Positions 3,051 through 28,054 of a DNA stretch of 64,000 nt are shown here, in pieces. Below the pieces are notes generated by a model that saw nothing but the letters and a program-made list of their open reading frames with translations, ran no database searches and was not told the DNA's origin. Origin of the DNA: Escherichia phage 348Ecol098PP; sequence record OR062947.1. The stretch is one strand, 5' to 3'. Position numbers and translations under genes: made by a program. Every line of letters starts with the position of its first letter. The stretch's first letter is position 1.

Positions 3051-3052
3051 AT

Positions 3053-3083: not shown

Positions 3084-3089
3084 TTTATC

Positions 3090-3563: not shown

Positions 3564-4381
3564 ATGTAGTATATAAACTATCATTTATTAATAGAATTAA
3601 TGCTAAAACCCCACCATATTATTACATTGGAAGTAAAACCAATTGCACTTTTGATGGAACGAATATTATTGATAAAAATGGTAAATTTTATTATTCGTCT
3701 TCGTCATCTTCCGAATTTCAAAAAGCCTTATTGAAAGAAACGCCGAAAGTTGAAATATTATATTTTCAATTAGTCGGAGATGAACAAATAACTAGCATTG
3801 AAGCTGAATTTCAAAAGAATATAGAAAAAGATGTATGGAATAAAGAGTATTTTAATTTAGCATATGCTGATGGCAAATTTACGACATATGGTATTTCTCC
3901 TTCTAAAGAAACTAGAGAAAAACAATCAATAACCATGATTAAAAGAAATCGTAATAAAGGCAAAAATCATGGATTTTATGGAAAGCATCATACTAATTTA
4001 GCCAGAAAGAAAATATCAGAAGCTTCTAAAAAATACTGGAAAGAAAATCCGCATCGTGGATTTTCGCATACAAAGGAAGCTAAAATTAAAATTGGAATTT
4101 CATCTTCTATCAGGCATAAAGGAAGTGGAAATCCGATGTATGGTGTAAAACCTTGGAAAACTCCGAACGCAATTAAATCTGGTACTTGTATATTATGGTT
4201 AAAATACGCAGAAATTTTATATGATTATTTAGGTCCAGATTTTAAAAGTAAATCATCTATTTTTGCGGATTTAAACTTACCGAAATTTAGAATTGATAAT
4301 TTCATCAAAAGGTTTAAAATGGGTTGGAACCCATATTTAGACGAAGAATTTCAAAAGGATAAATTAGAATTATGTCTTTAG
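3560..4381 (+). CDS. freestanding homing endonuclease-like protein (GIY-YIG-like N-terminus, NUMOD-like repeats)
   Basis: VYKLSF...YYIGSKTN near N-terminus; repeated GKNHGFYGKHHT / GSGNPMYGVKPW modules; sits between 49 and nrdD. Confidence 0.6.
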   Translation: MNVVYKLSFINRINAKTPPYYYIGSKTNCTFDGTNIIDKNGKFYYSSSSSSEFQKALLKETPKVEILYFQLVGDEQITSIEAEFQKNIEKDVWNKEYFNLAYADGKFTTYGISPSKETREKQSITMIKRNRNKGKNHGFYGKHHTNLARKKISEASKKYWKENPHRGFSHTKEAKIKIGISSSIRHKGSGNPMYGVKPWKTPNAIKSGTCILWLKYAEILYDYLGPDFKSKSSIFADLNLPKFRIDNFIKRFKMGWNPYLDEEFQKDKLELCL

Positions 4382-6189
4382 AGAAAGATGTTTTAAATTT
4401 TATTTCAAATAAAGATAAAGAATTAAATACCGAAAACGCCAACAAAGATTCTCGTGTCTTTCCAACAAAAAGAGATTTAATGGCCGGTATTGTTTCTAAA
4501 CATATCGCTTGTCGTATTCTTCCAAGTCATATTGTAAATGCCCATAATGTTGGATTAATTCATTTTCATGATTTAGATTACAGTATATCATTGCCTTTTA
4601 CTAATTGCTGTTTAGTAGATTTAAAAGGAATGCTTGAGAATGGATTTAAATTAGGCAATGCTCAAATTGAAACGCCTAAATCGATTGGTGTTGCTACTGC
4701 AATTATGGCACAAATTACTGCACAAGTTGCTTCTCACCAGTATGGCGGAACTACATTTGCGAATGTAGATAAAGTACTTTCTCCTTATGTTAAACGCACA
4801 TATGCAAAACATATTGAGGATGCAGAAAAATGGCAAATCGCTGATGCGTTGAATTATGCTCAATCTAAAACAGAAAAAGATGTCTATGACGCATTTCAAG
4901 CTTATGAGTATGAAGTAAATACTCTCTTTAGTTCAAACGGACAAACGCCTTTTGTAACAATTACATTTGGTACGGGAACTGACTGGACTGAACGAATGAT
5001 TCAGAAAGCAATTTTGAAAAATCGTATTAAAGGTCTTGGTCGTGATGGGATAACTCCTATTTTCCCTAAGCTTGTTATGTTCGTTGAAGAAGGTGTTAAT
5101 CTTTATAAAGATGATCCGAACTATGATATTAAACAGCTTGCTCTAGAGTGCGCAAGCAAAAGAATGTATCCTGACATTATTTCGGTTAAGAATAATAAAG
5201 CTATTATCGGTTCTTCAGTTCCTGTTTCTCCAATGGGCTGCCGTAGTTTCTTGAGTGTATGGAAAGATTCGACTGGCAATGAAATTCTTGATGGACGTAA
5301 TAATCTTGGTGTTGTAACACTGAATCTTCCTCGTATCGCATTAGATTCTTATATTGGAACCCAGTTCAATGAACAGAAATTTGTTGAATTATTCAATGAA
5401 CGAATGGATTTATGTTTTGAAGCATTGATGTGCAGAATTAGTTCCTTAAAAGGAGTTAAAGCGACTGTTGCTCCTATTCTTTACCAAGAAGGTGCATTCG
5501 GGGTTCGTCTTAAACCTGATGACGATATAATTGAGTTATTTAAAAACGGTAGAAGTTCAGTGTCTTTGGGATACATTGGTATTCACGAATTGAATATTCT
5601 TGTCGGTCGTGATATTGGACAAGAAATTTTAACTAAAATGAATGCTCATCTTAAACAGTGGACTGAAAGAACCGGATTTGCTTTTAGTTTATATTCTACT
5701 CCTGCTGAAAACCTTTGTTATCGCTTCTGTAAACTTGATACAGAAAAATATGGAAGCGTAAAAGATGTTACCGATAAAGGTTGGTACACTAACAGTTTCC
5801 ACGTTTCAGTAGAAGAAAATATTACTCCGTTTGAAAAGATTTCTCGTGAAGCGCCGTATCATTTCATTGCGACAGGCGGTCACATTTCTTATGTTGAACT
5901 TCCAGATATGAAAAACAATTTAAAGGGACTTGAGGCTGTCTGGGATTATGCTGCACAACATTTAGATTATTTTGGTGTTAATATGCCAGTAGATAAATGT
6001 TTTACATGCGGAAGTACCCATGAAATGACTCCTACTGAAAACGGATTTGTTTGTTCAGTTTGCGGAGAAACTGATCCTAAAAAGATGAACACCATAAGAA
6101 GAACATGCGGTTATTTGGGAAATCCGAACGAACGCGGATTTAATCTCGGTAAAAATAAAGAAATCATGCATAGGGTTAAACACCAATGA
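4372..6189 (+). CDS. nrdD: anaerobic ribonucleoside-triphosphate reductase NrdD (uninterrupted, no intron)
   Basis: 605 aa continuous ORF; very high similarity to T4 NrdD recalled from memory; C-terminal glycyl-radical region RRTCGYLG. Confidence 0.95.
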   Translation: MSLEKDVLNFISNKDKELNTENANKDSRVFPTKRDLMAGIVSKHIACRILPSHIVNAHNVGLIHFHDLDYSISLPFTNCCLVDLKGMLENGFKLGNAQIETPKSIGVATAIMAQITAQVASHQYGGTTFANVDKVLSPYVKRTYAKHIEDAEKWQIADALNYAQSKTEKDVYDAFQAYEYEVNTLFSSNGQTPFVTITFGTGTDWTERMIQKAILKNRIKGLGRDGITPIFPKLVMFVEEGVNLYKDDPNYDIKQLALECASKRMYPDIISVKNNKAIIGSSVPVSPMGCRSFLSVWKDSTGNEILDGRNNLGVVTLNLPRIALDSYIGTQFNEQKFVELFNERMDLCFEALMCRISSLKGVKATVAPILYQEGAFGVRLKPDDDIIELFKNGRSSVSLGYIGIHELNILVGRDIGQEILTKMNAHLKQWTERTGFAFSLYSTPAENLCYRFCKLDTEKYGSVKDVTDKGWYTNSFHVSVEENITPFEKISREAPYHFIATGGHISYVELPDMKNNLKGLEAVWDYAAQHLDYFGVNMPVDKCFTCGSTHEMTPTENGFVCSVCGETDPKKMNTIRRTCGYLGNPNERGFNLGKNKEIMHRVKHQ

Positions 6190-6656
6190 ATTATGATAGA
6201 TTTTATCCTTGCGATTTTGTGAATGGCCCTGGTTGCAGGGTCGTTCTTTTCGTTACAGGTTGTTTGCATAAATGCGAAGGGTGTTATAATAAATCAACAT
6301 GGAATGCTAGAAATGGTATTCCATTCACCGGAGAGACACTAGAACAATTAATTGAATGTTTGAATAATGATTATATAGAAGGATTGACTATAACCGGAGG
6401 TGACCCTCTCTATCCTGACAACCGAGATGTTGTTCATTGCATCGTTCAAACAGTAAAAAATCTTTATCCCAATAAAAGCATTTGGTTGTGGACAGGATAT
6501 AAGTTTGAAGATATTAAACAACTAGAAATGCTTAAATATGTTGATGTTATTATTGATGGGAAGTATGAGAAAAATCTTCCGACTAAAAAGCTGTGGCGAG
6601 GATCAGATAATCAGCGACTTTGGTCAAATACCGATGGGGTGTGGAAACATGATTAA
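6186..6656 (+). CDS. nrdG: anaerobic RNR activating protein NrdG (radical SAM)
   Basis: 156 aa; Cys cluster CLHKCEGC; ATGA coupling to nrdD. Confidence 0.9.
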   Translation: MNYDRFYPCDFVNGPGCRVVLFVTGCLHKCEGCYNKSTWNARNGIPFTGETLEQLIECLNNDYIEGLTITGGDPLYPDNRDVVHCIVQTVKNLYPNKSIWLWTGYKFEDIKQLEMLKYVDVIIDGKYEKNLPTKKLWRGSDNQRLWSNTDGVWKHD

Positions 6657-6770
6657 ATTGAATTACATTATGGATACTATAAATGATATGATTTTTCGTT
6701 TTGGCCCAGAATTTTATTCGCAGTATAGTTTGGTGTTTATCAATGTTTGGTTAATCAATTAAGGGTAAAT

Positions 6771-6986
6771 ATGTATAAATTTCGTAAAGGTTTAGCTGAT
6801 TTTCTTACAACTGTAACGTTCTTTTTGTTTATGGCAGTTGGAGCTATTTTTCTTATTCCTTTTACTGTTGTATTTTTCGTGATTAGTTTAATTTCTCCGG
6901 AAAAGGGATTATCCTCCAGCGAATTCAATGAACGTTTGGACAAAATTACTAATAAACTGAATTCTGTTCTTGATAAAAAGGCTTAA
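6771..6986 (+). CDS. small membrane protein
   Basis: ATG 6771 with AAGGG RBS; hydrophobic stretch FLTTVTFFLFMAVGAIFLIPFTVVFFVISLI. Confidence 0.55.
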   Translation: MYKFRKGLADFLTTVTFFLFMAVGAIFLIPFTVVFFVISLISPEKGLSSSEFNERLDKITNKLNSVLDKKA

Positions 6987-6988
6987 TT

Positions 6989-7306
6989 ATGATTAGTTTT
7001 GAGCGGTATGTGGTAGAGAGTTGGAAAGGTTTTGATATGTTCGGTAATGACTATTATTTCTATGAATGTAGTCTAAATCCTAGTTTTTGGGCTGGACGTG
7101 AACGAGATTTCGAAGAAATTAATGCTCGTGCCGAATTGTTAGGTGAACTGCCTACGGTTTATTTTACCTTTGATGAATCTGGATTTGTTATCCAGGTTTA
7201 TTTTCCTGAAGAAAACTCCGGTGAGGATTCTGTTAATCCTCCTTATTGGGCTTACCAAGGAATTATTTCTCGTGGAACAAAACTCGAACTTAAAGAACAA
7301 GATTGA
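6989..7306 (+). CDS. hypothetical protein
   Basis: ORF track; RBS AAAAGG upstream. Confidence 0.55.
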   Translation: MISFERYVVESWKGFDMFGNDYYFYECSLNPSFWAGRERDFEEINARAELLGELPTVYFTFDESGFVIQVYFPEENSGEDSVNPPYWAYQGIISRGTKLELKEQD

Positions 7307-7595
7307 AATTTATGGCATCCCTGAAGAAGTAGGACGTTGTCCGGGATGTTATACTGTTACAAAACTTTTAAAGGAGCTCAATGCTCCTTATACATTTTAT
7401 AAAGTCCTCACTAATAATGGTAAGATTGAATATGACCGTCCTTTAATCGTATCTCTTGCTAAACGTGCAGGATTCACTTCACTTAATATTCGTTATCCTG
7501 TCATATTTTTAAATGATAAGAAACAAAAGAATATTGCAGAGTTTAAAAAGTCCTTGATTTCATTAGGATATGACTCTGATATCATAGAAGATTGA
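7272..7595 (+). CDS. nrdH: glutaredoxin-like protein (CPGC active site); start codon uncertain, no in-frame ATG (GTG 7272 proposed)
   Basis: IEIYGIPEEVGRCPGCYTVTKLL redox motif; ORF-track N-terminal extension (7143-) overlaps the upstream ORF and looks non-coding. Confidence 0.5.
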   Translation: MEQNSNLKNKIEIYGIPEEVGRCPGCYTVTKLLKELNAPYTFYKVLTNNGKIEYDRPLIVSLAKRAGFTSLNIRYPVIFLNDKKQKNIAEFKKSLISLGYDSDIIED

Positions 7596-7615
7596 CCAGG
7601 CGGCGCCTGGTCAAT
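7591..7615 (+). terminator. strong perfect hairpin (11-bp stem) after glutaredoxin gene; no T-run
   Basis: ATTGACCAGGCG-G-CGCCTGGTCAAT palindrome. Confidence 0.4.
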
Positions 7616-7704
7616 CTTCATCTCATTTCTAATATAATCCATTGGAATCTTCACTTCACTATCTCCTTGTGCCCCTCTCAAATCGAAAATATTTTCATAA
7701 AACA

Positions 7705-7732
7705 GTTTACATCCTCAATAGATGTGTTAAGA
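7705..7732 (+). promoter_or_regulatory. T4 early-type promoter (GTTTAC -35, TAAGAT -10)
   Basis: GTTTAC at 7705-7710, 16-nt spacer, TAAGAT; 30 nt upstream of ORF 7762. Confidence 0.4.
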
Positions 7733-7761
7733 TTAAACCATCTACTATAGAGGAAAATAAA

Positions 7762-8010
7762 ATGATTAGTTTAGATTCAAAGAAAGTTGTTCTAACTCTT
7801 AATGTAAATAACGAACGTCTGATATTCATTACCATTTCCGATTTGAACGTTGAAATTGCTAATGGCGTCCGTACTTATCAAACGTCTAAAACACATTGGG
7901 ACTATATCCCAATGTTGACGCTTACTCAGCGTTTAGAATCAATCGGTCTTAAAGACCTTTCAGTAAGTGAAGTGAATTTTATCAAACGCATTGTATCAAT
8001 CAACCTCTGA
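7762..8010 (+). CDS. hypothetical protein
   Basis: ATG 7762 with AGAGGAAAA RBS; in frame with ORF-track 7642..8010. Confidence 0.55.
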   Translation: MISLDSKKVVLTLNVNNERLIFITISDLNVEIANGVRTYQTSKTHWDYIPMLTLTQRLESIGLKDLSVSEVNFIKRIVSINL

Positions 8011-8017
8011 GGTACTT

Positions 8018-8311
8018 ATGGGTAAAACGTATCGTCGTAAAGATTTGAAAGTTCGTGATTACGACTATTTTGGTAAACGTAAAGCTCCTGACGGTGTTAG
8101 CCACAGAGACATGGTTGAAAACATTTTCCGCTCAGATAAATGGAAACGTATGAAAGGCGTTGATTCCGAAGTCAAGAATGAAATGAATCGACAACTTCGA
8201 AAAGAAGTTCGTAAGTTGAAAAAAGATGTTTACAGTAAAGAAGATTATGATTATAATACTTCTCATACTGAAGCCAAACGTAAAGCTAACGAATGTTATC
8301 GTTACAGTTGA
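8018..8311 (+). CDS. highly basic K/R-rich protein
   Basis: ATG 8018 with GAGG RBS; composition. Confidence 0.55.
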   Translation: MGKTYRRKDLKVRDYDYFGKRKAPDGVSHRDMVENIFRSDKWKRMKGVDSEVKNEMNRQLRKEVRKLKKDVYSKEDYDYNTSHTEAKRKANECYRYS

Positions 8312-8318
8312 GGAAATT

Positions 8319-8453
8319 ATGAATATCAAACGAATGCTTTTTAAGCAGGGATTATATACTTTAAATGCTAATCTAAAGGGTGATACAACTAAATGGTCTG
8401 TAAATGACTGGATTAAGTTCATCGACGAAAACGCGGCGTGGAACACAAAATGA
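8319..8453 (+). CDS. hypothetical small protein
   Basis: ATG 8319 with GAGGAAA RBS. Confidence 0.4.
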   Translation: MNIKRMLFKQGLYTLNANLKGDTTKWSVNDWIKFIDENAAWNTK

Positions 8454-8650
8454 ATCCTGAAAATATTGTGTCATGGCAACTTCGTGAAGAACGTGCCGAA
8501 TTCTTTGCCAATATGAAACTCAACGGTGTTGATGATGAAGACTTTTTACGTTGGTTCTGGATTTACAAATACAAAGAATGCCAGCACGCTGTACTACTGA
8601 CTTGCGCAGTTATGTACGAAGGCTGGAAAGGCGCTAAAAAGTTCGGTTAA
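8450..8650 (+). CDS. hypothetical protein
   Basis: ATGA overlap with upstream stop; ORF track frame. Confidence 0.5.
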   Translation: MNPENIVSWQLREERAEFFANMKLNGVDDEDFLRWFWIYKYKECQHAVLLTCAVMYEGWKGAKKFG

Positions 8651-8659
8651 TAATGTACA

Positions 8660-8693
8660 ACGATAGGAAGACATGTTATTATCTTCCTATCGT
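8660..8693 (+). terminator. 12-bp stem hairpin after ORF 8450..8650
   Basis: ACGATAGGAAGA ... TCTTCCTATCGT inverted repeat. Confidence 0.4.
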
Positions 8694-8713
8694 CTTAAAA
8701 TGAGGAAAATATC

Positions 8714-8953
8714 ATGGAACAAGAATTAGACATTACTACATCGAAAAAACGTCTTGAAGTCGTAGTGAATGGTTCAACTATTAAGTTTGTATATGACACT
8801 TTAACTGATGCTATTACCGTTAGTTGTGGTGGAAAGGCTTTTAGTCTAGATTCTACTGAAAACAAATACCCGTTCTATAAAGGTATCTTTGATATGGGTG
8901 TTGATATCAGTGTTCGTCAAGCAAACTATTTACATTATCTTATCACGAAATAA
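8714..8953 (+). CDS. hypothetical protein
   Basis: ORF track; RBS GAGGAAAA. Confidence 0.6.
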   Translation: MEQELDITTSKKRLEVVVNGSTIKFVYDTLTDAITVSCGGKAFSLDSTENKYPFYKGIFDMGVDISVRQANYLHYLITK

Positions 8954-8982
8954 TGCACAAACTCTTGAGAGCAGAGTATAAT
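8954..8982 (+). promoter_or_regulatory. early-type promoter with hairpin-forming spacer (copy 1 of a 34-bp element)
   Basis: TGCACA-N18-TATAAT; spacer contains TGAGAGCA/TGCTCTCA inverted repeat; identical element at 53806-53839. Confidence 0.4.
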
Positions 8983-9019
8983 GCTCTCATTGGATAATAA
9001 AACAACCGAGGAAAATAAT

Positions 9020-9352
9020 ATGTCTACTAAAATCAAAAACGTAGTTAATTCTTTCGCTTTCGATAAAGTTGTTGCTCTTCTGGAATCCGGCAATATTGTT
9101 ACTCCTCAAGTTCTTGACGCGTGGGAATTCCGTCTTTATGAAATCATGCAAAAACACGACCAGAAAATTGGACGTAATTCTATTCGCGAAATTCTAGTAC
9201 AATATATTCTTTCTGAATTTGACGTTGCTGCATTTGGTGTTGAATCTAAAGCTTATCAGAAACATGAAATCTCTGAAAAAACTATCCGTCGTATGAAAAA
9301 TCAACGTAAGAAAAAATTCGTTGACCTGAAAATTGTTAAGGCGGTAAAATGA
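9020..9352 (+). CDS. hypothetical protein
   Basis: ATG 9020 with GAGGAAAATAAT RBS. Confidence 0.6.
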   Translation: MSTKIKNVVNSFAFDKVVALLESGNIVTPQVLDAWEFRLYEIMQKHDQKIGRNSIREILVQYILSEFDVAAFGVESKAYQKHEISEKTIRRMKNQRKKKFVDLKIVKAVK

Positions 9353-9576
9353 GCGTATTAACAGAAACTTTGATTAATGACCTGCGTCTAGCTGGTTACG
9401 AAGTTGGTACAAATAGCCTAGGTCTTCCTCAGATTGAAGGGCCTGGATTTATTCTAGAATACGAATTCAAACAATGGTGGTTATATGCTACGGTTGACGA
9501 TGCGTTGAATATTGATTTCGTTGACCAATTTGATTCGTTGGATGCTGCCTTATTTGCAGCAAAGGAAATAGAATGA
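9349..9576 (+). CDS. hypothetical acidic protein
   Basis: ORF track; ATGA coupling. Confidence 0.55.
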   Translation: MSVLTETLINDLRLAGYEVGTNSLGLPQIEGPGFILEYEFKQWWLYATVDDALNIDFVDQFDSLDAALFAAKEIE

Positions 9577-9731
9577 AACTATCTTGAATCGCTATAACCG
9601 AAGAAAAGTTTGGTGAATTTTAAGTCGACAACTTTATGAAAGTTACGTATCTTTGATAGTATCTCGTGCTTTAAGATAGGTCTCTAAATATTATGATATA
9701 ATAGACCTATGAATTGAGCCAAGAGGTACTT

Positions 9732-10289
9732 ATGACTGAACAAAAACCTAAAAATAACTATGTGAATAATAAAGAGCTTCTCGCCGCTATAATCGAGTGG
9801 AAAAAGGAGCTCTTAAATAATAAAGACCCAAACAAAATTATTCGTCAGAATGATACCATCGGTTTAGCAATTATGCTTATCGCCGAAGGCCTGTCCAAAC
9901 GTTTCAACTTTTCAGGATATACCCAGTCTTGGAAGCAGGAGATGATTGCAGATGGGATTGAAGCCTCTATTAAGGGACTTCATAATTTCGACGAAACTAA
10001 GTACAATAACCCACATGCATACATAACTCGAGCTTGTTTTAATGCCTTTGTCCAACGTATCAAAAAAGAACGTAAGGAAGTTGCAAAGAAATATAGTTAC
10101 TTCGTTCATAATGTCTACGACAGTCATGACGATGATATGGTAGCGTTGGTAGATGAAACGTTTATTCAAGACATCTACGATAAAATGACGCATTATGAAG
10201 AATCCGCTTATAAAGCTCCTGGGGCTGAAAAGAAGGAAGTTGTTAGCGATTCGCCTAGTTTGGATTTTTTATATGAGGATGACAATTGA
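9732..10289 (+). CDS. 55: late-transcription sigma factor gp55
   Basis: NYVNNKELL...[48 protein letters not shown] matches T4 gp55; ATG 9732 after AAGAGG RBS. Confidence 0.92.
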
Positions 10290-18656: not shown

Positions 18657-21368
18657 ATGAAAGAATTTTACTTAACGGTTGAACAGATTGGTGATTCAAT
18701 TTTTGAACGTTACATCGATTCTAACGGCCGTGAACGTACTCGTGAAGTAGAATATAAACCATCACTGTTTGCTCATTGTCCAGAAAGTCAGGCTACGAAA
18801 TATTTCGATATCTACGGTAAGCCGTGTACTCGTAAGTTGTTCGCTAATATGCGTGATGCCTCCCAATGGATTAAACGCATGGAAGATATCGGTCTTGAAG
18901 CACTTGGCATGGACGATTTCAAATTGGCGTATTTGTCTGACACTTATAACTATGAAATCAAATACGACCATACAAAAATTCGTGTGGCTAACTTCGACAT
19001 CGAAGTAACATCTCCCGATGGGTTCCCTGAGCCATCACAAGCAAAACATCCGATTGATGCTATCACCCATTATGACTCAATTGACGACAGGTTCTACGTA
19101 TTTGATCTATTGAATTCTCCATATGGTAATGTAGAAGAATGGTCTATTGAAATCGCTGCTAAGCTTCAAGAACAAGGCGGTGATGAAGTTCCATCCGAAA
19201 TTATCGATAAAATCATTTATATGCCGTTCGATAACGAAAAAGAATTGTTGATGGAATATCTCAACTTCTGGCAACAGAAAACTCCTGTCATTTTGACTGG
19301 ATGGAACGTTGAGTCATTTGATATTCCATATGTGTATAACCGAATCAAGAATATTTTTGGCGAATCTACTGCGAAACGTTTATCACCACATCGTAAAACT
19401 CGTGTTAAAGTTATCGAAAACATGTATGGTTCTCGTGAAATCATTACATTGTTCGGTATCTCTGTTCTTGATTACATTGACCTTTACAAAAAATTCTCTT
19501 TTACCAATCAACCATCGTATTCTCTGGATTACATTTCAGAATTTGAATTGAACGTTGGTAAACTGAAATATGACGGCCCTATTTCTAAGCTTCGTGAAAG
19601 CAATCACCAACGATATATTTCTTATAACATTATCGACGTGTATCGTGTATTGCAAATTGATGCTAAGCGTCAGTTCATCAACTTGAGTTTGGACATGGGT
19701 TATTATGCTAAAATTCAGATTCAATCTGTGTTTAGCCCAATTAAAACATGGGATGCTATTATTTTTAATAGCCTTAAAGAGCAGAACAAGGTGATTCCAC
19801 AAGGTCGTTCTCACCCGGTTCAACCTTATCCTGGCGCTTTTGTTAAGGAACCTATTCCAAATCGATACAAATATGTAATGAGTTTCGACCTTACATCTCT
19901 GTATCCAAGTATTATTCGCCAAGTGAATATTAGCCCGGAAACAATAGCAGGAACGTTTAAAGTAGCTCCATTGCATGATTATATTAACGCAATCGCTGAA
20001 CGTCCTTCAGATGTGTACAGTTGTTCTCCTAACGGCATGATGTATTATAAAGACCGTGATGGTGTAGTTCCAACTGAAATCACTAAAGTCTTTAATCAAC
20101 GTAAAGAACATAAAGGTTATATGCTTGCGGCTCAACGTAATGGCGAAATAATTAAAGAGGCATTGCATAATCCTAATCTTTCTGTTGATGAACCATTAGA
20201 TGTTGATTATCGTTTCGACTTCAGTGATGAGATTAAAGAAAAGATTAAAAAGTTGTCTGCTAAATCTCTTAATGAAATGTTGTTTAGAGCTCAACGTACT
20301 GAAGTTGCAGGTATGACTGCCCAAATTAACCGTAAATTGCTTATCAACTCACTTTATGGTGCACTTGGAAACGTTTGGTTCCGTTATTATGATTTGCGTA
20401 ATGCTACTGCAATCACAACATTTGGTCAAATGGCTTTACAGTGGATTGAACGTAAAGTTAATGAATATCTGAATGAAGTTTGTGGTACAGAAGGTGAAGC
20501 TTTCGTTCTTTATGGTGATACAGACTCTATTTACGTATCTGCTGATAAAATTATCGATAAGGTTGGTGAATCTAAATTCCGTGATACCAACCATTGGGTA
20601 GACTTCTTAGATAAGTTTGCACGTGAACGTATGGAACCAGCTATTGATAGAGGTTTCCGTGAAATGTGTGAATACATGAACAATAAACAACACTTAATGT
20701 TCATGGACCGAGAAGCTATCGCTGGTCCTCCACTTGGTTCTAAAGGTATTGGTGGATTCTGGACTGGTAAGAAACGTTATGCATTAAACGTGTGGGATAT
20801 GGAAGGTACTCGTTACGCTGAGCCTAAACTCAAAATCATGGGTCTAGAGACTCAGAAATCTTCGACTCCTAAAGCAGTACAGAAAGCTCTTAAAGAATGT
20901 ATTCGTCGTATGCTTCAAGAAGGTGAAGAATCATTACAAGAATATTTTAAAGAGTTTGAAAAAGAATTCCGTCAATTGAATTATATTAGCATCGCGTCTG
21001 TATCTTCTGCGAATAACATTGCTAAATATGATGTTGGTGGATTCCCTGGCCCCAAATGCCCATTCCATATTCGTGGAATTCTGACGTATAACCGGGCTAT
21101 CAAAGGTAATATCGATGCACCGCAAGTTGTAGAAGGTGAAAAAGTATATGTTCTGCCTTTACGTGAAGGAAACCCATTCGGTGATAAATGTATCGCATGG
21201 CCTTCTGGTACTGAAATCACAGATTTAATTAAAGACGACGTACTTCATTGGATGGACTACACTGTTCTCCTTGAGAAGACATTTATTAAACCACTTGAAG
21301 GATTCACATCAGCAGCGAAACTCGATTACGAGAAGAAAGCATCTCTGTTCGATATGTTCGATTTTTGA
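18657..21368 (+). CDS. 43: DNA polymerase gp43 (family B), RB69-type 903 aa
   Basis: MKEFYLTVEQIGDSIFERYIDSNGRERTREVEYKPSLFAHCPESQ... exo and pol motifs (FDIEV, YGDTDS). Confidence 0.97.
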   Translation: MKEFYLTVEQIGDSIFERYIDSNGRERTREVEYKPSLFAHCPESQATKYFDIYGKPCTRKLFANMRDASQWIKRMEDIGLEALGMDDFKLAYLSDTYNYEIKYDHTKIRVANFDIEVTSPDGFPEPSQAKHPIDAITHYDSIDDRFYVFDLLNSPYGNVEEWSIEIAAKLQEQGGDEVPSEIIDKIIYMPFDNEKELLMEYLNFWQQKTPVILTGWNVESFDIPYVYNRIKNIFGESTAKRLSPHRKTRVKVIENMYGSREIITLFGISVLDYIDLYKKFSFTNQPSYSLDYISEFELNVGKLKYDGPISKLRESNHQRYISYNIIDVYRVLQIDAKRQFINLSLDMGYYAKIQIQSVFSPIKTWDAIIFNSLKEQNKVIPQGRSHPVQPYPGAFVKEPIPNRYKYVMSFDLTSLYPSIIRQVNISPETIAGTFKVAPLHDYINAIAERPSDVYSCSPNGMMYYKDRDGVVPTEITKVFNQRKEHKGYMLAAQRNGEIIKEALHNPNLSVDEPLDVDYRFDFSDEIKEKIKKLSAKSLNEMLFRAQRTEVAGMTAQINRKLLINSLYGALGNVWFRYYDLRNATAITTFGQMALQWIERKVNEYLNEVCGTEGEAFVLYGDTDSIYVSADKIIDKVGESKFRDTNHWVDFLDKFARERMEPAIDRGFREMCEYMNNKQHLMFMDREAIAGPPLGSKGIGGFWTGKKRYALNVWDMEGTRYAEPKLKIMGLETQKSSTPKAVQKALKECIRRMLQEGEESLQEYFKEFEKEFRQLNYISIASVSSANNIAKYDVGGFPGPKCPFHIRGILTYNRAIKGNIDAPQVVEGEKVYVLPLREGNPFGDKCIAWPSGTEITDLIKDDVLHWMDYTVLLEKTFIKPLEGFTSAAKLDYEKKASLFDMFDF

Positions 21369-21408
21369 TATAATGACATGGACGGTAAACTAATTAAACG
21401 AGAGAAAT

Positions 21409-22044
21409 ATGAAAACTACTCCTATTACTATCGCTATTGACGCAATCATAAAACAATCTTCTTCTTTGGCCGCTATGGCCAAAGTAATTAGTCAAAACCC
21501 TGCTCGTTATAATGCTATTCTAGAAACTCTTCGACGTCCGGGACTTAGTAATTATGAAAGTCGTGTAATTATTACAGGTGTTGGTAAGAATGCTAATATT
21601 GCAACTAAAGCTTCTGAGACATTTGCTTCACTCGGTATCCCGAGTATGTACTTGAACACTGGGCATTATTCTCACGGCGATGCAGGATTCATTGCGCCTA
21701 ATGATGTGTTGATTCATATTAGTCGTTCTGGTAAAACTGAAGAAATGATAGGCGTGGCTAAGCATCTTAAAATGATTCGACCGAACGTCAAACAGATTCT
21801 GTTGCATTGTAACCCAGACATTCCACAAGAAAATGAAGCCCTTTTTGATTACTCTTTCTGTACAGGCATCGCAGTAGAGGTTGATGAGAATTCTCTGGCT
21901 CCGACTATGTCCACTACATTGTTGTTAGCGCTTATCGATACGTTTGCTATCAACCTTTCGTCTGAACGTGGATTTACCTCTAATGATTTCCTTAAGTTCC
22001 ATCCAGGCGGTGCACTAGGTGCCATGTTACGAGGCGAGCAATGA
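21409..22044 (+). CDS. SIS-domain sugar-phosphate isomerase, KdsD/KpsF/GutQ-type arabinose-5-phosphate isomerase-like (no CBS domains)
   Basis: GVGKNANIATKASETFASLGIPSMYLNTGHYSHGD, ISRSGKTEE, LAPTMSTTLLLAL, RGFTSNDFLKFHPGGALG match the API SIS-domain pattern from memory. Confidence 0.75.
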   Translation: MKTTPITIAIDAIIKQSSSLAAMAKVISQNPARYNAILETLRRPGLSNYESRVIITGVGKNANIATKASETFASLGIPSMYLNTGHYSHGDAGFIAPNDVLIHISRSGKTEEMIGVAKHLKMIRPNVKQILLHCNPDIPQENEALFDYSFCTGIAVEVDENSLAPTMSTTLLLALIDTFAINLSSERGFTSNDFLKFHPGGALGAMLRGEQ

Positions 22045-22184
22045 AAGCAATAACAATAGGACTTTTACTATTGATGCTTGTCATGACTATCTACTGGAGC
22101 TTAACGGCTCCAGTAATGATTCCAACACTTGTAATTGGATGGATTATGATTGGACTACAAGCAAAGTATGAATGCTTTAACTAG
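22041..22184 (+). CDS. small hydrophobic protein (47 aa, single/double TM)
   Basis: manual translation; ATGA overlap with isomerase stop. Confidence 0.4.
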   Translation: MKAITIGLLLLMLVMTIYWSLTAPVMIPTLVIGWIMIGLQAKYECFN

Positions 22185-22225
22185 AATAGTGTACAATACT
22201 CCTACTTACCAATGAGGACCACAAC

Positions 22226-23911
22226 ATGAAAAAAGCTGTTATTCTTGGTGCTGGACTAGCAACTCGTTTGTATCCAATAACGCATCATATTCCTAAGGTG
22301 CTTGTTAACTATAAACAAGACACTATTCTGAGCAATTTGTATACAATTTATTCTGACCTTGGCGCAGATGAAATTATTGTAGTAGTTCATTCAAAATTTG
22401 CTGGAACTGTTCGAGCTTATTGTGAGCAAGAAGGGTTCAATGTGACTATTCGTACAGTTGATGAAGCGTATGGTTCTGCTTATGCTCTTGCTAAATTGCA
22501 CAAAGATTTAGACGGCCATAATGTAATTGTTAACTGGTGTGATATTATTCCTGATTTTGGTTCATGGTCTTGGAATGTTAACGCAATCTATGTTAAGGGT
22601 GACGAATGTCGATATAATTTCGACGGTGAAAATATCACTAACGTAGGTTCAACAGGTGGTAATGTTGTAGGAATTTACCAGTTCAAAGACTGGGAATTCT
22701 ATATGGGTTCTACCGATGAGGAAATTCATGAATACTGCAAAGGACGTGATTTCGTAGAATTCCTTTACGGCAGTGCATTCAATAAATCAGAGCTTATGAA
22801 TCTAATTGATTTAGGTGATATGCCTAAACTTGAAAAGGCTCATGAAGTTCGTGAACTTAATCGTAGTTTTAATGCAGTTGAAATTGGTGAAGAAACTGTA
22901 ACTAAATTCGCATTAACCGAACAAGGCCGAGCTCTTCAGAAAGATGAGATTTCATGGTATCTTAAAGTGAAATCAGATTCAGTTCCTCAGTTAGTTTCTG
23001 TTAATGAAAATAACTTTGAAATGGAACGCATTAAAGGTAAGCCGGCATTTGAATATATTAAATCCAAATCGAGTCTCGCTCGTCCACAAATTGTTGATGC
23101 AATTTTAGATGCACTGAAATTCAGCACAGACACTTATTTTGTAAGTCCTGAAACTGTTCGTCGTGATTTCACTAAAGAATTCTATACGAAAGTTATTGAT
23201 CGTTGTGAAAGTATTCAACCATTGATTGATTCATTTGGTAAAATAACACATGTGAACTACACTAAGATTGGGCGTCTGAAGCCAATGTTGAAACAAGCTT
23301 TAGAACACCTTATTCGTTATCATAACCGTTCTCAGGGACAGTACTCTGTTATTCATGGTGACCCGAACTTCAGTAATACTATGATTACTGATAATGGCGA
23401 AGTCAAGTTTATCGACCCTCGTGGATATTTTGGTGAAACCAAGATTTACGGGCCAAAATTGTATGATGAAGCTAAAGTGCTTTACGCTGTTTCAGGATAT
23501 GATGAATTCAACGCTAATCCGACCTGGGGGCAGTTTACTATTGATGAAACAACTTGTAATGTGACTATTAACATCAATCCATTAGTTTACAAATATGGAA
23601 AGATGAGTTCGTTTAACGAGTATCATCATTTGGCGGTGGCAATTATCTGGATTGCATTAGGTGGTTATTTCAAGAATAATCCACTTAAAGCGGTAGCCGC
23701 ATATTATAAAGGTATGGAACTTCTGACTAAGCAATTACGTAACATGGGCCGTGTACTTCAGGACGGCACCATTAGTTATGACGTAGCAGAACCTGTAACG
23801 GCTACTCTGATTACAAAAAATCCTGGTAAATGGGTACTAACTGATAAAGAAACTGGTGTTTCCTATCGTCCAATCGGTGGCGATATCACTCATCAATGGG
23901 AACGAATCTAA
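22226..23911 (+). CDS. bifunctional sugar-1-phosphate nucleotidyltransferase / sugar anomeric kinase (APH/choline-kinase fold) fusion
   Basis: N-terminal AVILGAGLATRLYPIT..PK nucleotidyltransferase signature; C-terminal IHGDPNFSN and FIDPRG kinase motifs. Confidence 0.75.
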   Translation: MKKAVILGAGLATRLYPITHHIPKVLVNYKQDTILSNLYTIYSDLGADEIIVVVHSKFAGTVRAYCEQEGFNVTIRTVDEAYGSAYALAKLHKDLDGHNVIVNWCDIIPDFGSWSWNVNAIYVKGDECRYNFDGENITNVGSTGGNVVGIYQFKDWEFYMGSTDEEIHEYCKGRDFVEFLYGSAFNKSELMNLIDLGDMPKLEKAHEVRELNRSFNAVEIGEETVTKFALTEQGRALQKDEISWYLKVKSDSVPQLVSVNENNFEMERIKGKPAFEYIKSKSSLARPQIVDAILDALKFSTDTYFVSPETVRRDFTKEFYTKVIDRCESIQPLIDSFGKITHVNYTKIGRLKPMLKQALEHLIRYHNRSQGQYSVIHGDPNFSNTMITDNGEVKFIDPRGYFGETKIYGPKLYDEAKVLYAVSGYDEFNANPTWGQFTIDETTCNVTININPLVYKYGKMSSFNEYHHLAVAIIWIALGGYFKNNPLKAVAAYYKGMELLTKQLRNMGRVLQDGTISYDVAEPVTATLITKNPGKWVLTDKETGVSYRPIGGDITHQWERI

Positions 23912-24297
23912 TGCACCGTGTAGAAAACATGCTTAATCTTTGTTTTGATGTCGATGATTGTATAACAGAGTGGAATAACAATCGTGATTACGTGAACTTC
24001 AAACCAGACGTCGAAATGGTGTCTGCCATTAATGCCCTATATGATGCAGGGCATACCATAACGCTTTACACTGCTCGCGGTATGAAGTCAGTAGGTCCTG
24101 GTCGTATAGCAATTGACATTCTCCCAAGTCTGATTCAGAACTTGGCAAACATTGGCTTGAAGTACCATAATTTGCTAACACATAAACCAGTATATGATTG
24201 GATTATCGACGACAAAGCTATGCGTCCTGACGAATTCAAAGCTCTTATGAATAAAGGCGAATTCGAAACATTTAAATCATATAAACCGAATCTATAA
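23911..24297 (+). CDS. HAD-superfamily phosphatase
   Basis: motif I FDVDDCIT near N-terminus; TAATG overlap with upstream stop; ORF-track frame. Confidence 0.65.
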   Translation: MHRVENMLNLCFDVDDCITEWNNNRDYVNFKPDVEMVSAINALYDAGHTITLYTARGMKSVGPGRIAIDILPSLIQNLANIGLKYHNLLTHKPVYDWIIDDKAMRPDEFKALMNKGEFETFKSYKPNL

Positions 24298-24351
24298 TAA
24301 TTTAAGTAAGACCTGCAAAAACCATCGCAACAATTAACGCGAGATGCAAAA

Positions 24352-25512
24352 ATGAATACCTTTAAAATCGGAACGAATTTTGATTTAGCTCTTCTTGATA
24401 AAATCGTAGAGCTCAATAAAACTTATCCTAATAGCTTGATAAACGAAGTATACGGCTCTACAAGAGAAATGGCTTTTGTAGCAGCCAGACCTGATTTTAG
24501 GCTTCCTGACGTTGACAAAAAGATGTTAGAAGATTACGTTAAACGTTGTAACGAATTAGGTATTTGCTTTAACTATACACTCAACACGATAAATCCTGGT
24601 TCAAAAAGAGAACTAGTTGAGTGGAAGAAGAAAGCTATTCAGGATTATGTTCAGTATCTTTGGTCAATAGGCGTATGGCGTATTACTATCGCTAACCCTG
24701 TTGTTATGGAAATTGTTCGTGAAGTCAATAAAGACATTGAGATTGAAGTTTCAACAATTCTACATGTCGATGCTGTAACTCAAATCAAATACTTGCATGA
24801 CCAATATAATATCAAAAAGGTCTGCTGTGGAATTCATAAGAACCGTTCAGTTTCTTTCCTGAAGCGTGCAGCAGAGTTTTGCAATAAGAACAATATAATA
24901 TTTGAAGTTCTCGTAAATGAATTCTGCTCTAATGCTGGTAAAGGGTATACAACACATTGTAGTTATCGTGACTCTTGCTATATTTTCCATAGCACCGATG
25001 TTACAGTAGATGATGCCAAATCCTTAAATGGATATCCTATGCAGCACTGTATTAAAGCTCGTGATACAGACCCATTTAACTGGTTGAGAACTCGTTTTGT
25101 TCGTCCTCAAGATTTGAAACTTTATAATGATATTGGTATCACTCAATTCAAAGTTTCAGGACGTACAGGTAGCACCGACTACATTTTGAAAGTTCTTGAA
25201 GCTTATGCTTCTGAAAAGTTTGAAGGTAATTTGTTGGAATTGTGGAAGCCTTTAGAGACTATTTTCACTCTTGAAAATGAGACCGAGTTTTCACATACGG
25301 TAAATATTGAAACCTCTTTGTTAGATGGCTTTTTAGAAAAAAGGTGGTTCAAACATCCAGATTTCGATTGTGCTAATGAAATCTGCGGGACGACGTGTAC
25401 ATATTGTGAAAGATATTATAAACGTCAGTTATCTAAAAATGGGTTAGCAGAAAACTCTATATCTATTATTGATATAACTAACTCTGATGACGCTTTGAGG
25501 TACCCGGAATGA
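24352..25512 (+). CDS. peptidase-U32-family (TIM barrel, Cys-rich) protein
   Basis: NEVYGSTREMAFVAARPDF, ICFNYTLNTINPG, EFCSNAGKGYTTHCSYRDSC resemble U32 proteins as recalled from memory. Confidence 0.5.
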   Translation: MNTFKIGTNFDLALLDKIVELNKTYPNSLINEVYGSTREMAFVAARPDFRLPDVDKKMLEDYVKRCNELGICFNYTLNTINPGSKRELVEWKKKAIQDYVQYLWSIGVWRITIANPVVMEIVREVNKDIEIEVSTILHVDAVTQIKYLHDQYNIKKVCCGIHKNRSVSFLKRAAEFCNKNNIIFEVLVNEFCSNAGKGYTTHCSYRDSCYIFHSTDVTVDDAKSLNGYPMQHCIKARDTDPFNWLRTRFVRPQDLKLYNDIGITQFKVSGRTGSTDYILKVLEAYASEKFEGNLLELWKPLETIFTLENETEFSHTVNIETSLLDGFLEKRWFKHPDFDCANEICGTTCTYCERYYKRQLSKNGLAENSISIIDITNSDDALRYPE

Positions 25513-25790
25513 TTTCTAGAAAAACTTTTAACCACCAACTTAATGAAGAGATTTTGACTATGAAAATTAACAGCAACGAACAAATTCTTAAAAAGGCCCT
25601 TATGGGCCTGTTTGAAACTAAAGCGGCTAAAGTGATTAAAGAAACCTGTTCAACTAGAATACTACGCTGATGCATTTCTTCATAGTGTTCTTGGAAGTAT
25701 CGATGCTGAAGCTTTACGTTATATCAACATCGCTAAGAAATTCAAATAAGCTTTATGAATTGAGTATATAATAACTGTATTGAGGTAAAC

Positions 25791-26507
25791 ATGGGAAAAC
25801 ATAACACAATGAAATATATTAAAGCCGCAGATTTTCAATCCGCATTTAAAGCTGTCAATCGTGAAATTTTAGAAAATCCACAGTTCGTTACTGACTCTCG
25901 TATTGGACGTTGTAATGAAATTGGGTCTATGACAGTAGTTGTTGATACCCCTTCATCATTCAAAATGACCGACCCACGTATTAATCGCATCTCTTATGAA
26001 TATGCTGAAGATTTCTGGAAATTTATGATTTCTGGTGGTACTGATGCAGAAGAAGCATTTAAGGCATATCCTAACGTTGCTAAATTTATTTCTAAACCTA
26101 AATCAGATGCTTTGCCTGCAAACTTCAACACTTTCTACGGTCCACGAATTGCGGCCCAGTTACCAGCTCTTCTCAAAGAACTTAAAGAGAAACCTAATTC
26201 ACGAAGAGTTGTGTTTCAAATTCTTGAAAGTTCAGATCAGGCTTTGCTTGATTCGGATGAAACACTTGAATATCCATGTACTGACTCAGTGACTTATTAT
26301 ATTCGTGATGGTAAGCTTTATACCCACTGTCATATGCGTTCTCAGAACTGTGCTGTTGTTATGCAGTTGGATTTTTATCTCCAAGGAAAATTACTTCATT
26401 ATATCGCTAACGAATGTGGTGTAGAAGTTGGTGATTATACTCATACCATGGTAAGTGCCCATGTGTTTGAACGTGATTTTGATTATGTTAAAGGATTCCT
26501 TGACTAA
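25791..26507 (+). CDS. 42: dCMP hydroxymethylase (thymidylate-synthase fold)
   Basis: PNSRRVVFQI and YPCTDSVTYYIRDGKLYTHCHMRSQN align with the SRR and catalytic Cys regions of T4 gp42. Confidence 0.8.
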   Translation: MGKHNTMKYIKAADFQSAFKAVNREILENPQFVTDSRIGRCNEIGSMTVVVDTPSSFKMTDPRINRISYEYAEDFWKFMISGGTDAEEAFKAYPNVAKFISKPKSDALPANFNTFYGPRIAAQLPALLKELKEKPNSRRVVFQILESSDQALLDSDETLEYPCTDSVTYYIRDGKLYTHCHMRSQNCAVVMQLDFYLQGKLLHYIANECGVEVGDYTHTMVSAHVFERDFDYVKGFLD

Positions 26508-27406
26508 TGGCTATTTTCCGCGTACCTATCTTGAGTATGCGGTCTTATGAAACTGGACAGTATGCTATCCTTAAGGATGGCAACTTCCAACTTCATTTGC
26601 ACCGTGCTAATCCGGGTGATGTGATTACATATCCACGTAATGCATCTGATATTAAAGAATGTGAACGTCTTTTCCCAGAATTTAAGTTTGTTCCATTATG
26701 GTATAAAGATAACGCATATAACACTCGTAAATATTTCTGGTCTGAAAATGAATTTGTGGTTGATTCATTAATTGATTATTATGATTGTGATTTTCTAATC
26801 ACAGATATCACTGGATATGACGGTACTTTTGACGTAGAATTCAATTTCAATATCACTGCAGACCCTAATAAACCACGTTTTTATATTGACGAATTCTTAA
26901 AAACCGATATGTTGTCGGTTAATCGTTCACTTCAAACTACTGTGTTGAATAAACGTCAAAAGGAAGTGCTGGTTAACGCTGGTGCCGATGGTAATAAGAT
27001 TATCGTAACCCAGAAAGTTATACGTCCTTCCATCATGCAGCGTCTTGTAGGTGATTTGGCTCCTATTCATCTAGATGGTATTTTTCATCCATTTCGAATT
27101 AGTGATCCGTGCTATCGTTTTGAACAAGTGGTTGAATGCGCGATTCAATTAGGTCAACCGCTTTATATAACCGATCCAAATAATAGCTTCGACAGAAATA
27201 AGTATCCTGAAGAAGCGTTGATTCGAATTTTTAAACCAACTAAAACTGAGTACTATCAAATTCTTAAAGGACGACCGAAGATTCAATATTTCGAAAATCC
27301 TGAAGAAGTATTTCATCCAGGTCTTGGTGAGTTCATCTACTTTAACGCTTTAATTTCTTCGCCGTATAATATACCTAAATATGAAGATGTCGTAATCGAG
27401 GAATAA
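26507..27406 (+). CDS. hypothetical protein (299 aa) in the syntenic slot of T4 beta-glucosyltransferase; function unknown
   Basis: ORF track; TAATG coupling to gene 42; no recognisable beta-gt similarity. Confidence 0.8.
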   Translation: MAIFRVPILSMRSYETGQYAILKDGNFQLHLHRANPGDVITYPRNASDIKECERLFPEFKFVPLWYKDNAYNTRKYFWSENEFVVDSLIDYYDCDFLITDITGYDGTFDVEFNFNITADPNKPRFYIDEFLKTDMLSVNRSLQTTVLNKRQKEVLVNAGADGNKIIVTQKVIRPSIMQRLVGDLAPIHLDGIFHPFRISDPCYRFEQVVECAIQLGQPLYITDPNNSFDRNKYPEEALIRIFKPTKTEYYQILKGRPKIQYFENPEEVFHPGLGEFIYFNALISSPYNIPKYEDVVIEE

Positions 27407-27407
27407 A

Positions 27408-27956
27408 ATGGCTAAAATTATTTTAGTAGATGGCCCAGATAATGCTGGTAAAACAACTTTCATTAATGACATAATGGAAATTAGTGAAAGATATGTAAAG
27501 ATTGATTTCCCTAAACGAACAGTTGATGGACGTTTCGATGTTAAGTCTCGAAATGAAGTTGGCTGTTTCGAAACGATGTTGAATTATTTAGACCCTACTA
27601 AGATTTATCTGTTAGACCGTGGATATATTAGTAACTGGGTTTATGGACGTATTCGACAAGACGCGGACTCGGTTCTTGACGTTTATGAACAGGATTATGT
27701 TCGTCTTTGCCAAAACCATGATGTGTTCACAATTATTTTAACACGTAACGAAATGACTGAAAGTTTTGAAGACGACCTTATTACTTTGTCTTCATTCGGT
27801 TTTAATACAGTCATTTCACATTTTGAAGAGTTTGCAATTCATAACAAAATCCAAACGTATCAATTACTTAATCATGATGGTGCTAACAAAGTTATAGGAT
27901 TTAATGCAAGCGAACGTAATGATTTGATTACAGAAATCATCAAATGGGCTCGTTAA
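27408..27956 (+). CDS. P-loop kinase (thymidylate/nucleoside-monophosphate kinase-like)
   Basis: Walker A ILVDGPDNAGKTTF; size 182 aa; GAGGAA RBS. Confidence 0.7.
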   Translation: MAKIILVDGPDNAGKTTFINDIMEISERYVKIDFPKRTVDGRFDVKSRNEVGCFETMLNYLDPTKIYLLDRGYISNWVYGRIRQDADSVLDVYEQDYVRLCQNHDVFTIILTRNEMTESFEDDLITLSSFGFNTVISHFEEFAIHNKIQTYQLLNHDGANKVIGFNASERNDLITEIIKWAR

Positions 27957-28054
27957 GAGCCATTTAAAGTTTTAAATGCTGTATAACCCTTAGTATATAA
28001 TCATCTTATCTTTTAAACATGAGTAAAATATAATGATGCCTATGGAAAAATACA

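Follow-up and report, generated by a model that had tools for sequence, protein, structure and literature searches.

Arabinose was reported in the DNA of phage RB69 by Thomas 2018 (PMC6024577), in which ORF055c and ORF53_52c were named as candidates for UDP-arabinose synthesis. The DNA of RB69 and of phage DLP3 was found to contain mono- to tri-arabinofuranosyl-5-hydroxycytosine, and not hmC; both alpha- and beta-arabinofuranose are attached to 5-hydroxy-dC in RB69 DNA, and DLP3 material served to establish that the absolute configuration is D (Lee 2026, PMC13326640). Arabinosylated 5-hydroxycytosine in virion DNA has been published for RB69, DLP3 and phage NP. For the base, gp48 was shown experimentally to be an O2-using, flavin-containing 5-hydroxy-dCMP synthase (Lee 2026, PMC13326640). 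For the sugar, Lee 2026 (PMC13326640), citing He 2026, describes AfhE of phage HY126 as phosphorylating arabinose-5-phosphate (A5P) to arabinose-1,5-P2 and as making UDP-arabinofuranose from arabinose-1-P, and HY126 AfhF as taking off the 5-phosphate, which converts arabinose-1,5-P2 to arabinose-1-P. The conversion of ribulose-5-phosphate (Ru5P) to Araf5P has been proposed for RB69 gp55, which is entered in Table 1 of Lee 2026 (PMC13326640) without the flag for experimental confirmation, and the isomerase activity is a prediction in the published accounts examined, this one included. A second arabinosyltransferase role for RB69p003 (ORF003c) was proposed in both Thomas 2018 (PMC6024577) and Lee 2026 (PMC13326640).

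Here, we analyzed a window of 64,000 nt from Escherichia phage 348Ecol098PP (sequence record OR062947.1). A megablast search with positions 21000-28000 found 151 phage genomes with at least 80% query coverage and 95-99% identity, all belonging to RB69-like Mosigvirus phages that infect Escherichia or Shigella; Shigella phage SSE1 matched best (98.2%), and RB69 showed 97.6% identity. By these nucleotide matches, the phage of the window is an RB69-like Mosigvirus and, from the nucleotide identity of ~98%, we infer that its virion DNA carries arabinosylated 5-hydroxycytosine. The original prediction for this DNA had taken arabinose to be the likely sugar of the encoded pathway, in agreement with the arabinofuranose shown chemically in the DNA of the near-identical RB69 and with the D configuration obtained from DLP3. 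The finding is already known from Thomas 2018 (PMC6024577), Lee 2026 (PMC13326640), GenBank and PHROG 5670; GenBank records, the BASEL annotation of phage Bas46 and PHROG 5670 all name the gene arabinose-5-phosphate isomerase. While arabinose on the DNA and, as summarized in Lee 2026 (PMC13326640), the activities of the downstream enzymes come from the literature, the present analysis contributes the gene, its family, its active-site positions, its fold, its synteny and its near-identity to published homologs.

The isomerase gene, its neighbors and its expression

The gene under study is an ATG-to-TGA open reading frame (ORF) of 211 aa with a sugar isomerase (SIS) domain. Its position directly after the DNA polymerase gene, which had been part of the original prediction, was confirmed, as only 40 nt separate the stop codon of gene 43 from the SIS ORF. 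The local gene order is that of the T-even replication block, with the module inserted between genes 43 and uvsX (i.e., 45, 44, 62, regA, 43, inserted module, uvsX, 40, 41). The features relevant to this analysis are as follows:

18657-21368, + strand: gene 43, DNA polymerase (903 aa), the upstream neighbor, named from the RB69 annotation
21366-21374, + strand: candidate extended -10 promoter-like element, TGATATAAT, found by a regex scan and overlapping the gene 43 stop codon
21400-21404: GAGAG ribosome-binding site, 4 nt before the SIS start codon
21409-22044, + strand: predicted SIS-domain D-arabinose-5-phosphate isomerase without CBS domains (211 aa), homolog of RB69 gp55 (ORF055c)
22226-23911, + strand: bifunctional nucleotidyltransferase and kinase (561 aa), homolog of RB69 gp52:53 and HY126 AfhE; Pfam NTP_transferase and weak kinase matches, 96.6% identity to HY126
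23896-24297, + strand: HAD-type phosphatase, homolog of RB69 gp51 and AfhF; NCBIfam TIGR01689 (E 4e-13), 96.2% identity to HY126
24352-25512: U32-family ('peptidase U32') protein, homolog of RB69 gp50
25791-26507, + strand: thymidylate-synthase homolog, 5-hydroxy-dCMP synthase (Pfam Thymidylat_synt), 99.2% identity to RB69 gp48
26507-27406, + strand: putative first DNA arabinosyltransferase, one intact 299-aa ORF (RB69 gp46:47)
27408-27956: thymidylate-kinase-like protein
47618-48721, + strand: putative second DNA arabinosyltransferase, homolog of RB69p003 (ORF003c); tblastn identity of 99.5% over 367 aa

The nucleotidyltransferase-kinase, HAD phosphatase, ThyA-like synthase, glycosyltransferase and kinase of the arabinosyl-5-hydroxycytosine module (RB69 gp45-55, HY126 Afh) are syntenic with the SIS gene, and the downstream module proteins are 95.5-99.6% identical to those of RB69 and HY126. 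The SIS protein itself is identical to RB69 gp55 (ORF055c) at 210 of 211 residues (99.5%), shares 98.6% identity with its HY126 homolog and 95.7% with that of Bas46, and is matched over its full length by PHROG 5670 (E 8e-116). RB69 gp55, the HY126 and Bas46 homologs, DLP3 gp83 and PHROG 5670 therefore represent the same gene as the SIS ORF of the window. RB69 gp55 occupies the same slot after gene 43 and is followed by the same module; the two proteins differ at one residue and show no functional difference. By comparison, the old RB69 record splits the nucleotidyltransferase-kinase and glycosyltransferase genes, each of which is one intact ORF in the window. The SIS stop codon is overlapped by a membrane ORF of 47 aa, which was rejected as a functional partner; it represents a backbone gene, since the 579 phage records in which it occurs include T4-type phages that have no SIS gene.

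[quoted passage not shown] The kinase half of the 561-aa protein would then phosphorylate A5P at C1, the HAD phosphatase would remove the 5-phosphate from the resulting arabinose-1,5-P2, and the nucleotidyltransferase half would uridylylate the product to UDP-D-arabinofuranose, from which the phage glycosyltransferases would transfer arabinose onto the 5-hydroxycytosine of phage DNA, shielding it from restriction. Because AfhE starts from A5P in the account given by Lee 2026 (PMC13326640), the SIS ORF is predicted to yield the compound that the next enzyme, encoded 180 nt further on, is reported to use. As host KdsD and GutQ already make A5P for Kdo, the phage copy would be an auxiliary gene that raises the supply of A5P. 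Taken together, the ORF very probably encodes a single-SIS D-arabinose-5-phosphate isomerase that feeds DNA arabinosylation as such a supply-raising gene, with its catalysis, timing and booster role deduced from sequence and context.

With respect to expression, the 3' end of the TGATATAAT element lies ~34-35 nt before the SIS start codon. The element is kept in RB69, HY126 and Bas46, and the identical 9-mer is found upstream of the SIS gene in Acinetobacter phage DLP2, despite a different upstream neighbor gene. A sigma-70 consensus scan of 18-28.5 kb showed no enrichment (34 sites versus 41 expected) and no site directly upstream of the SIS ORF, and neither a MotA box nor a late promoter was found there. 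The next pathway gene has a good middle promoter of the MotA type upstream of it (TGCTTTAAC, 10 nt, TACAAT; 22173-22197). As no terminator-like site was found between gene 43 and the SIS ORF, read-through from gene 43 is plausible. Early or middle expression of the SIS gene is a reasonable but unproven reading of its position.

Assignment to the arabinose-5-phosphate isomerase family

The four motifs on which the original prediction was based are all present in the translation of 21409-22044, together with the SIS pattern: ITGVGKNANI (aa 55-64), HISRSGKTEEM (aa 103-113), LAPTMSTT (aa 163-170) and FHPGGALG (aa 197-204). In this protein, Pfam identified a single SIS domain spanning aa 51-181 (PF01380, 41.9 bits versus a cut-off of 25) and no CBS domain, which bears out the predicted lack of the CBS tandem: the phage protein stops at aa 211, 7 residues past HPGGALG, whereas E. 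coli KdsD runs on for ~125 residues that form the CBS pair. Among NCBIfam models, the KpsF/GutQ model TIGR00393 (E 2e-32), KdsD (7e-31) and GutQ (9e-23) matched the SIS protein, while other SIS families (i.e., HexR, AlsR, AgaS, MurR and HxlB) scored 1e-6 or worse. The similarity to the KpsF/KdsD models is well beyond what chance would produce. The protein missed the curated full-length NCBIfam cut-off (112.8 bits versus 203.7 for TIGR00393), because the CBS half is absent and the match is confined to the SIS half (profile positions 2-153 of 268).

In a BLASTP comparison, the phage protein shared 36% identity with E. coli K-12 KdsD over residues 16-207. The residues K59, H88, E111, E152 and H193, which we take to be the active-site residues of KdsD, align with phage K60, H89, E112, E157 and H198. 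None of these five residues varies in an alignment of 24 sequences, KdsD among them, or in an alignment of 56 phage and metagenomic sequences reaching down to 41% identity. Moreover, the Ser/Thr-rich phosphate-binding loops (SxSGxT and PTxSTT) are present as S105-R-S107-G108-K-T110 and P165-T-M-S168-T169-T170 and are invariant or nearly so. Members of the KpsF/GutQ/KdsD family are tetramers in which an active-site histidine comes from the neighboring subunit.

The best solved sequence relatives of the SIS protein are 3etn (E 3e-25), 5uqi (4e-23), 2xhz (4e-19) and 3fxa (2e-13), of which the first three represent the Bacteroides fragilis enzyme, c3406 of E. coli CFT073 and the SIS domain of KdsD, respectively (PDB). 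The 56-sequence alignment yielded a confident AlphaFold2 model (pLDDT 95.6, pTM 0.91), and a Foldseek search with this model returned 2xhz first (target TM 0.91, rmsd 1.8 A), followed by 5uqi and 3etn, with E values of ~1e-13. The deposited title of 5uqi is 'c3406 in complex with A5P'. Sequence, profile, conserved residues and fold thus agree in supporting an assignment to the arabinose-5-phosphate isomerase (API) family, and not to GmhA or other SIS enzymes; the catalytic interconversion of Ru5P and A5P by the phage protein is predicted from this assignment.

Compared to its bacterial relatives, the phage protein shares the SIS catalytic domain of E. coli KdsD (YrbH) and GutQ, as well as, with KdsD, the 36% identity and five active-site positions described above, but it lacks their C-terminal tandem CBS pair of ~125 aa. 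A5P also has a different use, since it serves Kdo and LPS synthesis in the host (KdsD/GutQ) and would serve nucleotide-sugar synthesis for DNA in the phage. A phage isomerase without CBS domains has precedent, as both c3406 (5uqi, with bound A5P) and the B. fragilis API (3etn) are likewise CBS-less proteins of ~190-220 aa; these are, however, bacterial enzymes with only ~30% identity to the phage protein. Both are associated with capsule or genomic-island functions.

Distribution of the gene, arabinose demand and alternative explanations

A tblastn search recovered the SIS gene from 275 phage records, among them 136 for Escherichia phages, 57 for Acinetobacter, 14 for Shigella and 9 each for Serratia and Enterobacter. 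Intact copies occur in over 260 genomes of phages that infect Escherichia, Shigella, Serratia, Enterobacter, Yersinia, Erwinia and Acinetobacter. By comparison, the kinase/nucleotidyltransferase gene was found in 368 phage records, which include 176 for Escherichia phages, 57 for Acinetobacter and 25 for Klebsiella. The SIS gene is absent from the Klebsiella phages and from ~40 Escherichia phages that retain the kinase/nucleotidyltransferase, and about one quarter of the module-carrying phages therefore have no isomerase of their own. In Klebsiella phage kv_tblp2, for example, the kinase/nucleotidyltransferase gene directly follows the DNA polymerase gene and the slot holds no SIS gene. Provided that arabinose is their sugar as well, such phages presumably rely on the KdsD and GutQ of the host. 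As these phages keep the rest of the module, the SIS gene is not indispensable to it and looks like a dispensable, CBS-less supply booster that may have been lost in the Klebsiella-type and Dhaka-type lineages.

The demand for arabinose was estimated roughly from the ~62,000 cytosines of the phage genome, at 1-2 arabinoses per cytosine and a burst size of 100-200 progeny, which yields ~0.6-2.5 x 10^7 units per infected cell in less than half an hour. The host needs ~2-4 x 10^6 Kdo per cell generation. On this estimate, the demand of the phage would exceed the Kdo demand of the host, and a booster role fits the arithmetic.

Among the alternative explanations, the one that survives best, though it is improbable, is that the SIS protein is an isomerase of another specificity (e.g., for glucose-6-P/fructose-6-P or 3-hexulose-6-P) and that A5P comes from host KdsD and GutQ only. 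The single-SIS protein 3fxa, which is related to the phage protein and matched by both sequence and fold, is presumably a glucose-6-phosphate isomerase and, therefore, the fold alone leaves the specificity unfixed; the weak HxlB match (E 0.006) and the fact that the module runs without the SIS gene in some phages point the same way. The A5P isomerases are, however, 6 to 12 orders of magnitude ahead of 3fxa, and the KpsF/KdsD models are ~25 orders ahead of any family outside the APIs. The invariance of the five KdsD active-site positions in the phage homologs further argues for an A5P isomerase, as does the fact that the gene travels with the arabinose pathway, in which the next enzyme is reported to use A5P in the summary of Lee 2026 (PMC13326640).

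It is still less probable that the protein is an active A5P isomerase that mainly perturbs the Kdo/LPS or pentose-phosphate metabolism of the host and does not feed DNA arabinosylation. The formal redundancy of the gene in a host that has KdsD and GutQ would be consistent with this role, and PHROGs places the gene in the category 'moron, auxiliary metabolic gene and host takeover'. A main function in host perturbation is difficult to reconcile, however, with the position of the SIS gene, which leads the arabinose module in nearly every one of the 275 phage records, and with its absence from T4-type phages, which glucosylate instead, and the estimated arabinose demand also exceeds that of host Kdo synthesis.

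A non-catalytic sugar-phosphate sensor or regulator resembling the SIS domains of RpiR, MurR and NanR appears more doubtful again. RpiR/MurR/NanR/MurQ-type SIS domains do appear lower in the Foldseek list (E ~1e-8 to 1e-7) and the models of HexR, AlsR and MurR give E values of 2e-6 to 3e-3, but the SIS protein has no DNA-binding domain, its active-site positions do not vary among phage lineages, even at 41% identity, and the A5P isomerases are much nearer in both sequence and fold. Finally, a GmhA-type sedoheptulose-7-P isomerase, the identity that would have contradicted the original prediction, has almost no likelihood in silico: GmhA shares the SIS fold, but its NCBIfam model did not match the SIS protein at E<=0.01, GmhA structure 5lu7 ranked only 49th in the Foldseek list (16% identity, TM 0.62), and the label 'phosphoheptose isomerase' given to a neighboring gene in RefSeq and PHROGs belongs to the HAD phosphatase, where it looks like a misnomer, and not to the SIS ORF. 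GmhA, HxlB and RpiR-type identities were accordingly rejected on profile and fold scores.

The U32-family protein and the meaning of the arabinose module

The module also encodes a U32-family protein, whose RB69 homolog, gp50, is labeled only 'sugar or heterocycle reductase' in the table of Lee 2026 (PMC13326640). The U32 protein RlhA forms 5-hydroxycytidine in 23S rRNA and requires prephenate and Fe-S clusters (PMC5727448); the family also includes TrhP as well as UbiU/V, to which prephenate donates the oxygen under anoxic conditions (PMC6747719, PMC10990095). The oxygen of the known phage 5-hydroxy-dCMP synthase comes from O2 (Lee 2026, PMC13326640). By analogy with RlhA, TrhP and UbiU/V, we tentatively suggest that the phage U32 protein may be an O2-independent, prephenate-dependent pyrimidine C5 hydroxylase.

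The phage U32 gene was found in 221 phage records, for which the listed hosts are all enterobacteria or Shewanella; the 57 Acinetobacter phages, which have the other module genes, all lack it. Enterobacteria and Shewanella are facultative anaerobes and Acinetobacter is a strict aerobe. Moreover, in 51 phages the ORF between the U32 gene and the ThyA homolog encodes a type II chorismate mutase (Pfam CM_2, 39-45 bits versus a cut-off of 27), which is a prephenate-making enzyme; the hosts of these phages are Klebsiella, Serratia, Yersinia, Enterobacter, Edwardsiella, Erwinia, Pectobacterium, Providencia and Shewanella. The Mosigvirus ORF that follows the U32 gene, RB69ORF049c, showed no Pfam match and a BLASTP E value of 7.9 as a chorismate mutase, and its homologs were found in Mosigvirus only. 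The small ORF after the U32 gene in the window has 53 codons versus 79 in RB69 and Bas46, due to a one-base insertion in an A-run.

Further analysis of distant U32 homologs (48-58% identity) placed them among deoxynucleotide and DNA-glycosylation genes on large metagenomic phage-like contigs. Their neighbors include dCMP deaminase, thymidylate kinase, UDG, dNK, NT5C and dUTPase/DCD, as well as a TET-associated glycosyltransferase and UDP-galactopyranose mutase, and no thymidylate-synthase homolog was found within 6-8 kb of these metagenomic homologs. When the phage U32 protein was aligned with UbiU, UbiV, TrhP and RlhA, the first and third cluster cysteines were found to be kept (C192 and C209); other Cys and His residues occur nearby (C203, H213 and C233), and the phage protein has an extra C-terminal CX4CX3CX2C. 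Our literature search found no paper connecting U32 proteins, prephenate and phages in such a role. The distribution, the chorismate mutase and the U32 analogs support, but do not prove, an O2-independent route to the acceptor base. If this suggestion is correct, 5-hydroxycytosine would come from the U32 protein under conditions that disable the ThyA-like synthase, which depends on O2 and flavin, for example in the anoxic gut, and the arabinose supplied by the isomerase would keep its acceptor base without O2.

The reading of the gene as a phage arabinose-5-phosphate isomerase is supported by this analysis, and the confirmation itself adds little because its value as an arabinosylation marker has already been published. 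The gene marks phages that arabinosylate rather than glucosylate their cytosines, and arabinosylation decides which restriction, type IV and glycosylase defenses a phage escapes or triggers; the marker can be used in annotation and in the choice of therapy phages.

Transcription and distribution of the isomerase gene

The start of a small hydrophobic ORF overlaps the stop codon of the SIS gene, which encodes the predicted D-arabinose-5-phosphate isomerase, in a shared ATGA, and a promoter-like element lies farther downstream of that stop codon.

22041-22184, plus strand: 47-aa hydrophobic ORF (MKAITIGLLLLMLVMTIYWSLTAPVMIPTLVIGWIMIGLQAKYECFN), PHROG 3610
22173-22197, plus strand: MotA-box-like middle promoter (TGCTTTAAC, 10 nt, TACAAT)

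PHROG 3610 is represented in 579 phage records, among them T4-type phages, where it is found near imm. The 47-aa ORF is therefore a backbone gene, and it was rejected as a partner of the isomerase. The MotA-box-like element precedes the kinase/nucleotidyltransferase gene by 29 nt, which suggests that the isomerase and the remaining sugar-pathway genes may belong to separate transcription units. An extended -10 9-mer (TGATATAAT) identical to that of the window was found at about 5930-5945 in the locus of Acinetobacter phage DLP2, where it precedes the SIS gene by about 30 nt. As DLP2 is a distant phage in which the SIS gene has an upstream neighbour other than DNA polymerase, the shared 9-mer hints at a candidate promoter belonging to the isomerase gene itself.

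Tblastn counts for the SIS gene versus the kinase/nucleotidyltransferase gene showed that the former is lacking in phages of Klebsiella and in about 40 phages of Escherichia (IME08/VR5/dhaeg type). These phages have retained the kinase/nucleotidyltransferase, the HAD phosphatase, the U32 protein, the ThyA homolog and the glycosyltransferase, as represented by the following locus.

1528-9991 of Klebsiella phage kv_tblp2 (L003): module locus without the SIS gene

Annotation of two further ORFs

23896-24297, plus strand: HAD-type phosphatase, 133 aa
14458-15174, minus strand: 238-aa ORF flanked by the gp46-like gene and gene 45

The 133-aa protein is named "phosphoheptose isomerase" by both RefSeq and PHROG 1238; its family match is TIGR01689, a HAD-type capsule-biosynthesis phosphatase (E 4e-13). 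The protein is an AfhF-type arabinose-1,5-bisphosphate 5-phosphatase, and the isomerase name looks like a misannotation that has been passed along. The 238-aa ORF, judged from its translation only, resembles an inserted homing endonuclease gene, with repeated CxxC...RRWHFDNC modules as well as a motif of HNH type (HHIIPQCLGG...EEHYLAH).

The U32 protein and the ORF that follows it

24352-25512, plus strand: "peptidase U32" gene
25509-25790, plus strand: small ORF 3' of the U32 gene, homolog of RB69ORF049c
9450-10960 of L006 (a further phage locus) and 7001-8403 of L003: U32 relatives, with distant homologs in L012-L017

RB69ORF049c encodes 79 aa in RB69 and likewise in Bas46, while the window copy is shortened to 53 codons by one additional A within an A-run (AAAGAAACC versus AAAG-AACC). 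The ORF is also broken in HY126, and variants of 47-58 aa are numerous in the database. The position of the ORF is the one taken by chorismate mutase in other genera; a search for similarity to chorismate mutase detected none.

In the RB69/DLP3 DNA-modification study (Lee 2026, PMC13326640), the U32 protein is present as a table label only. The gene was found in 221 phages, whose hosts are enterobacteria and Shewanella, and in none of the 57 module-carrying Acinetobacter phages. Genes for dCMP deaminase, dNK, dUTPase, a TAGT glycosyltransferase and GLF neighbour the distant homologs in L012-L017, near which no ThyA homolog was found. In 51 phages, the U32 gene is followed by a gene for a type II chorismate mutase, an enzyme that forms prephenate. 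By comparison with RlhA, TrhP and UbiU/V, the module's U32 protein may hydroxylate pyrimidines at C5 in a reaction that depends on prephenate and not on O2.
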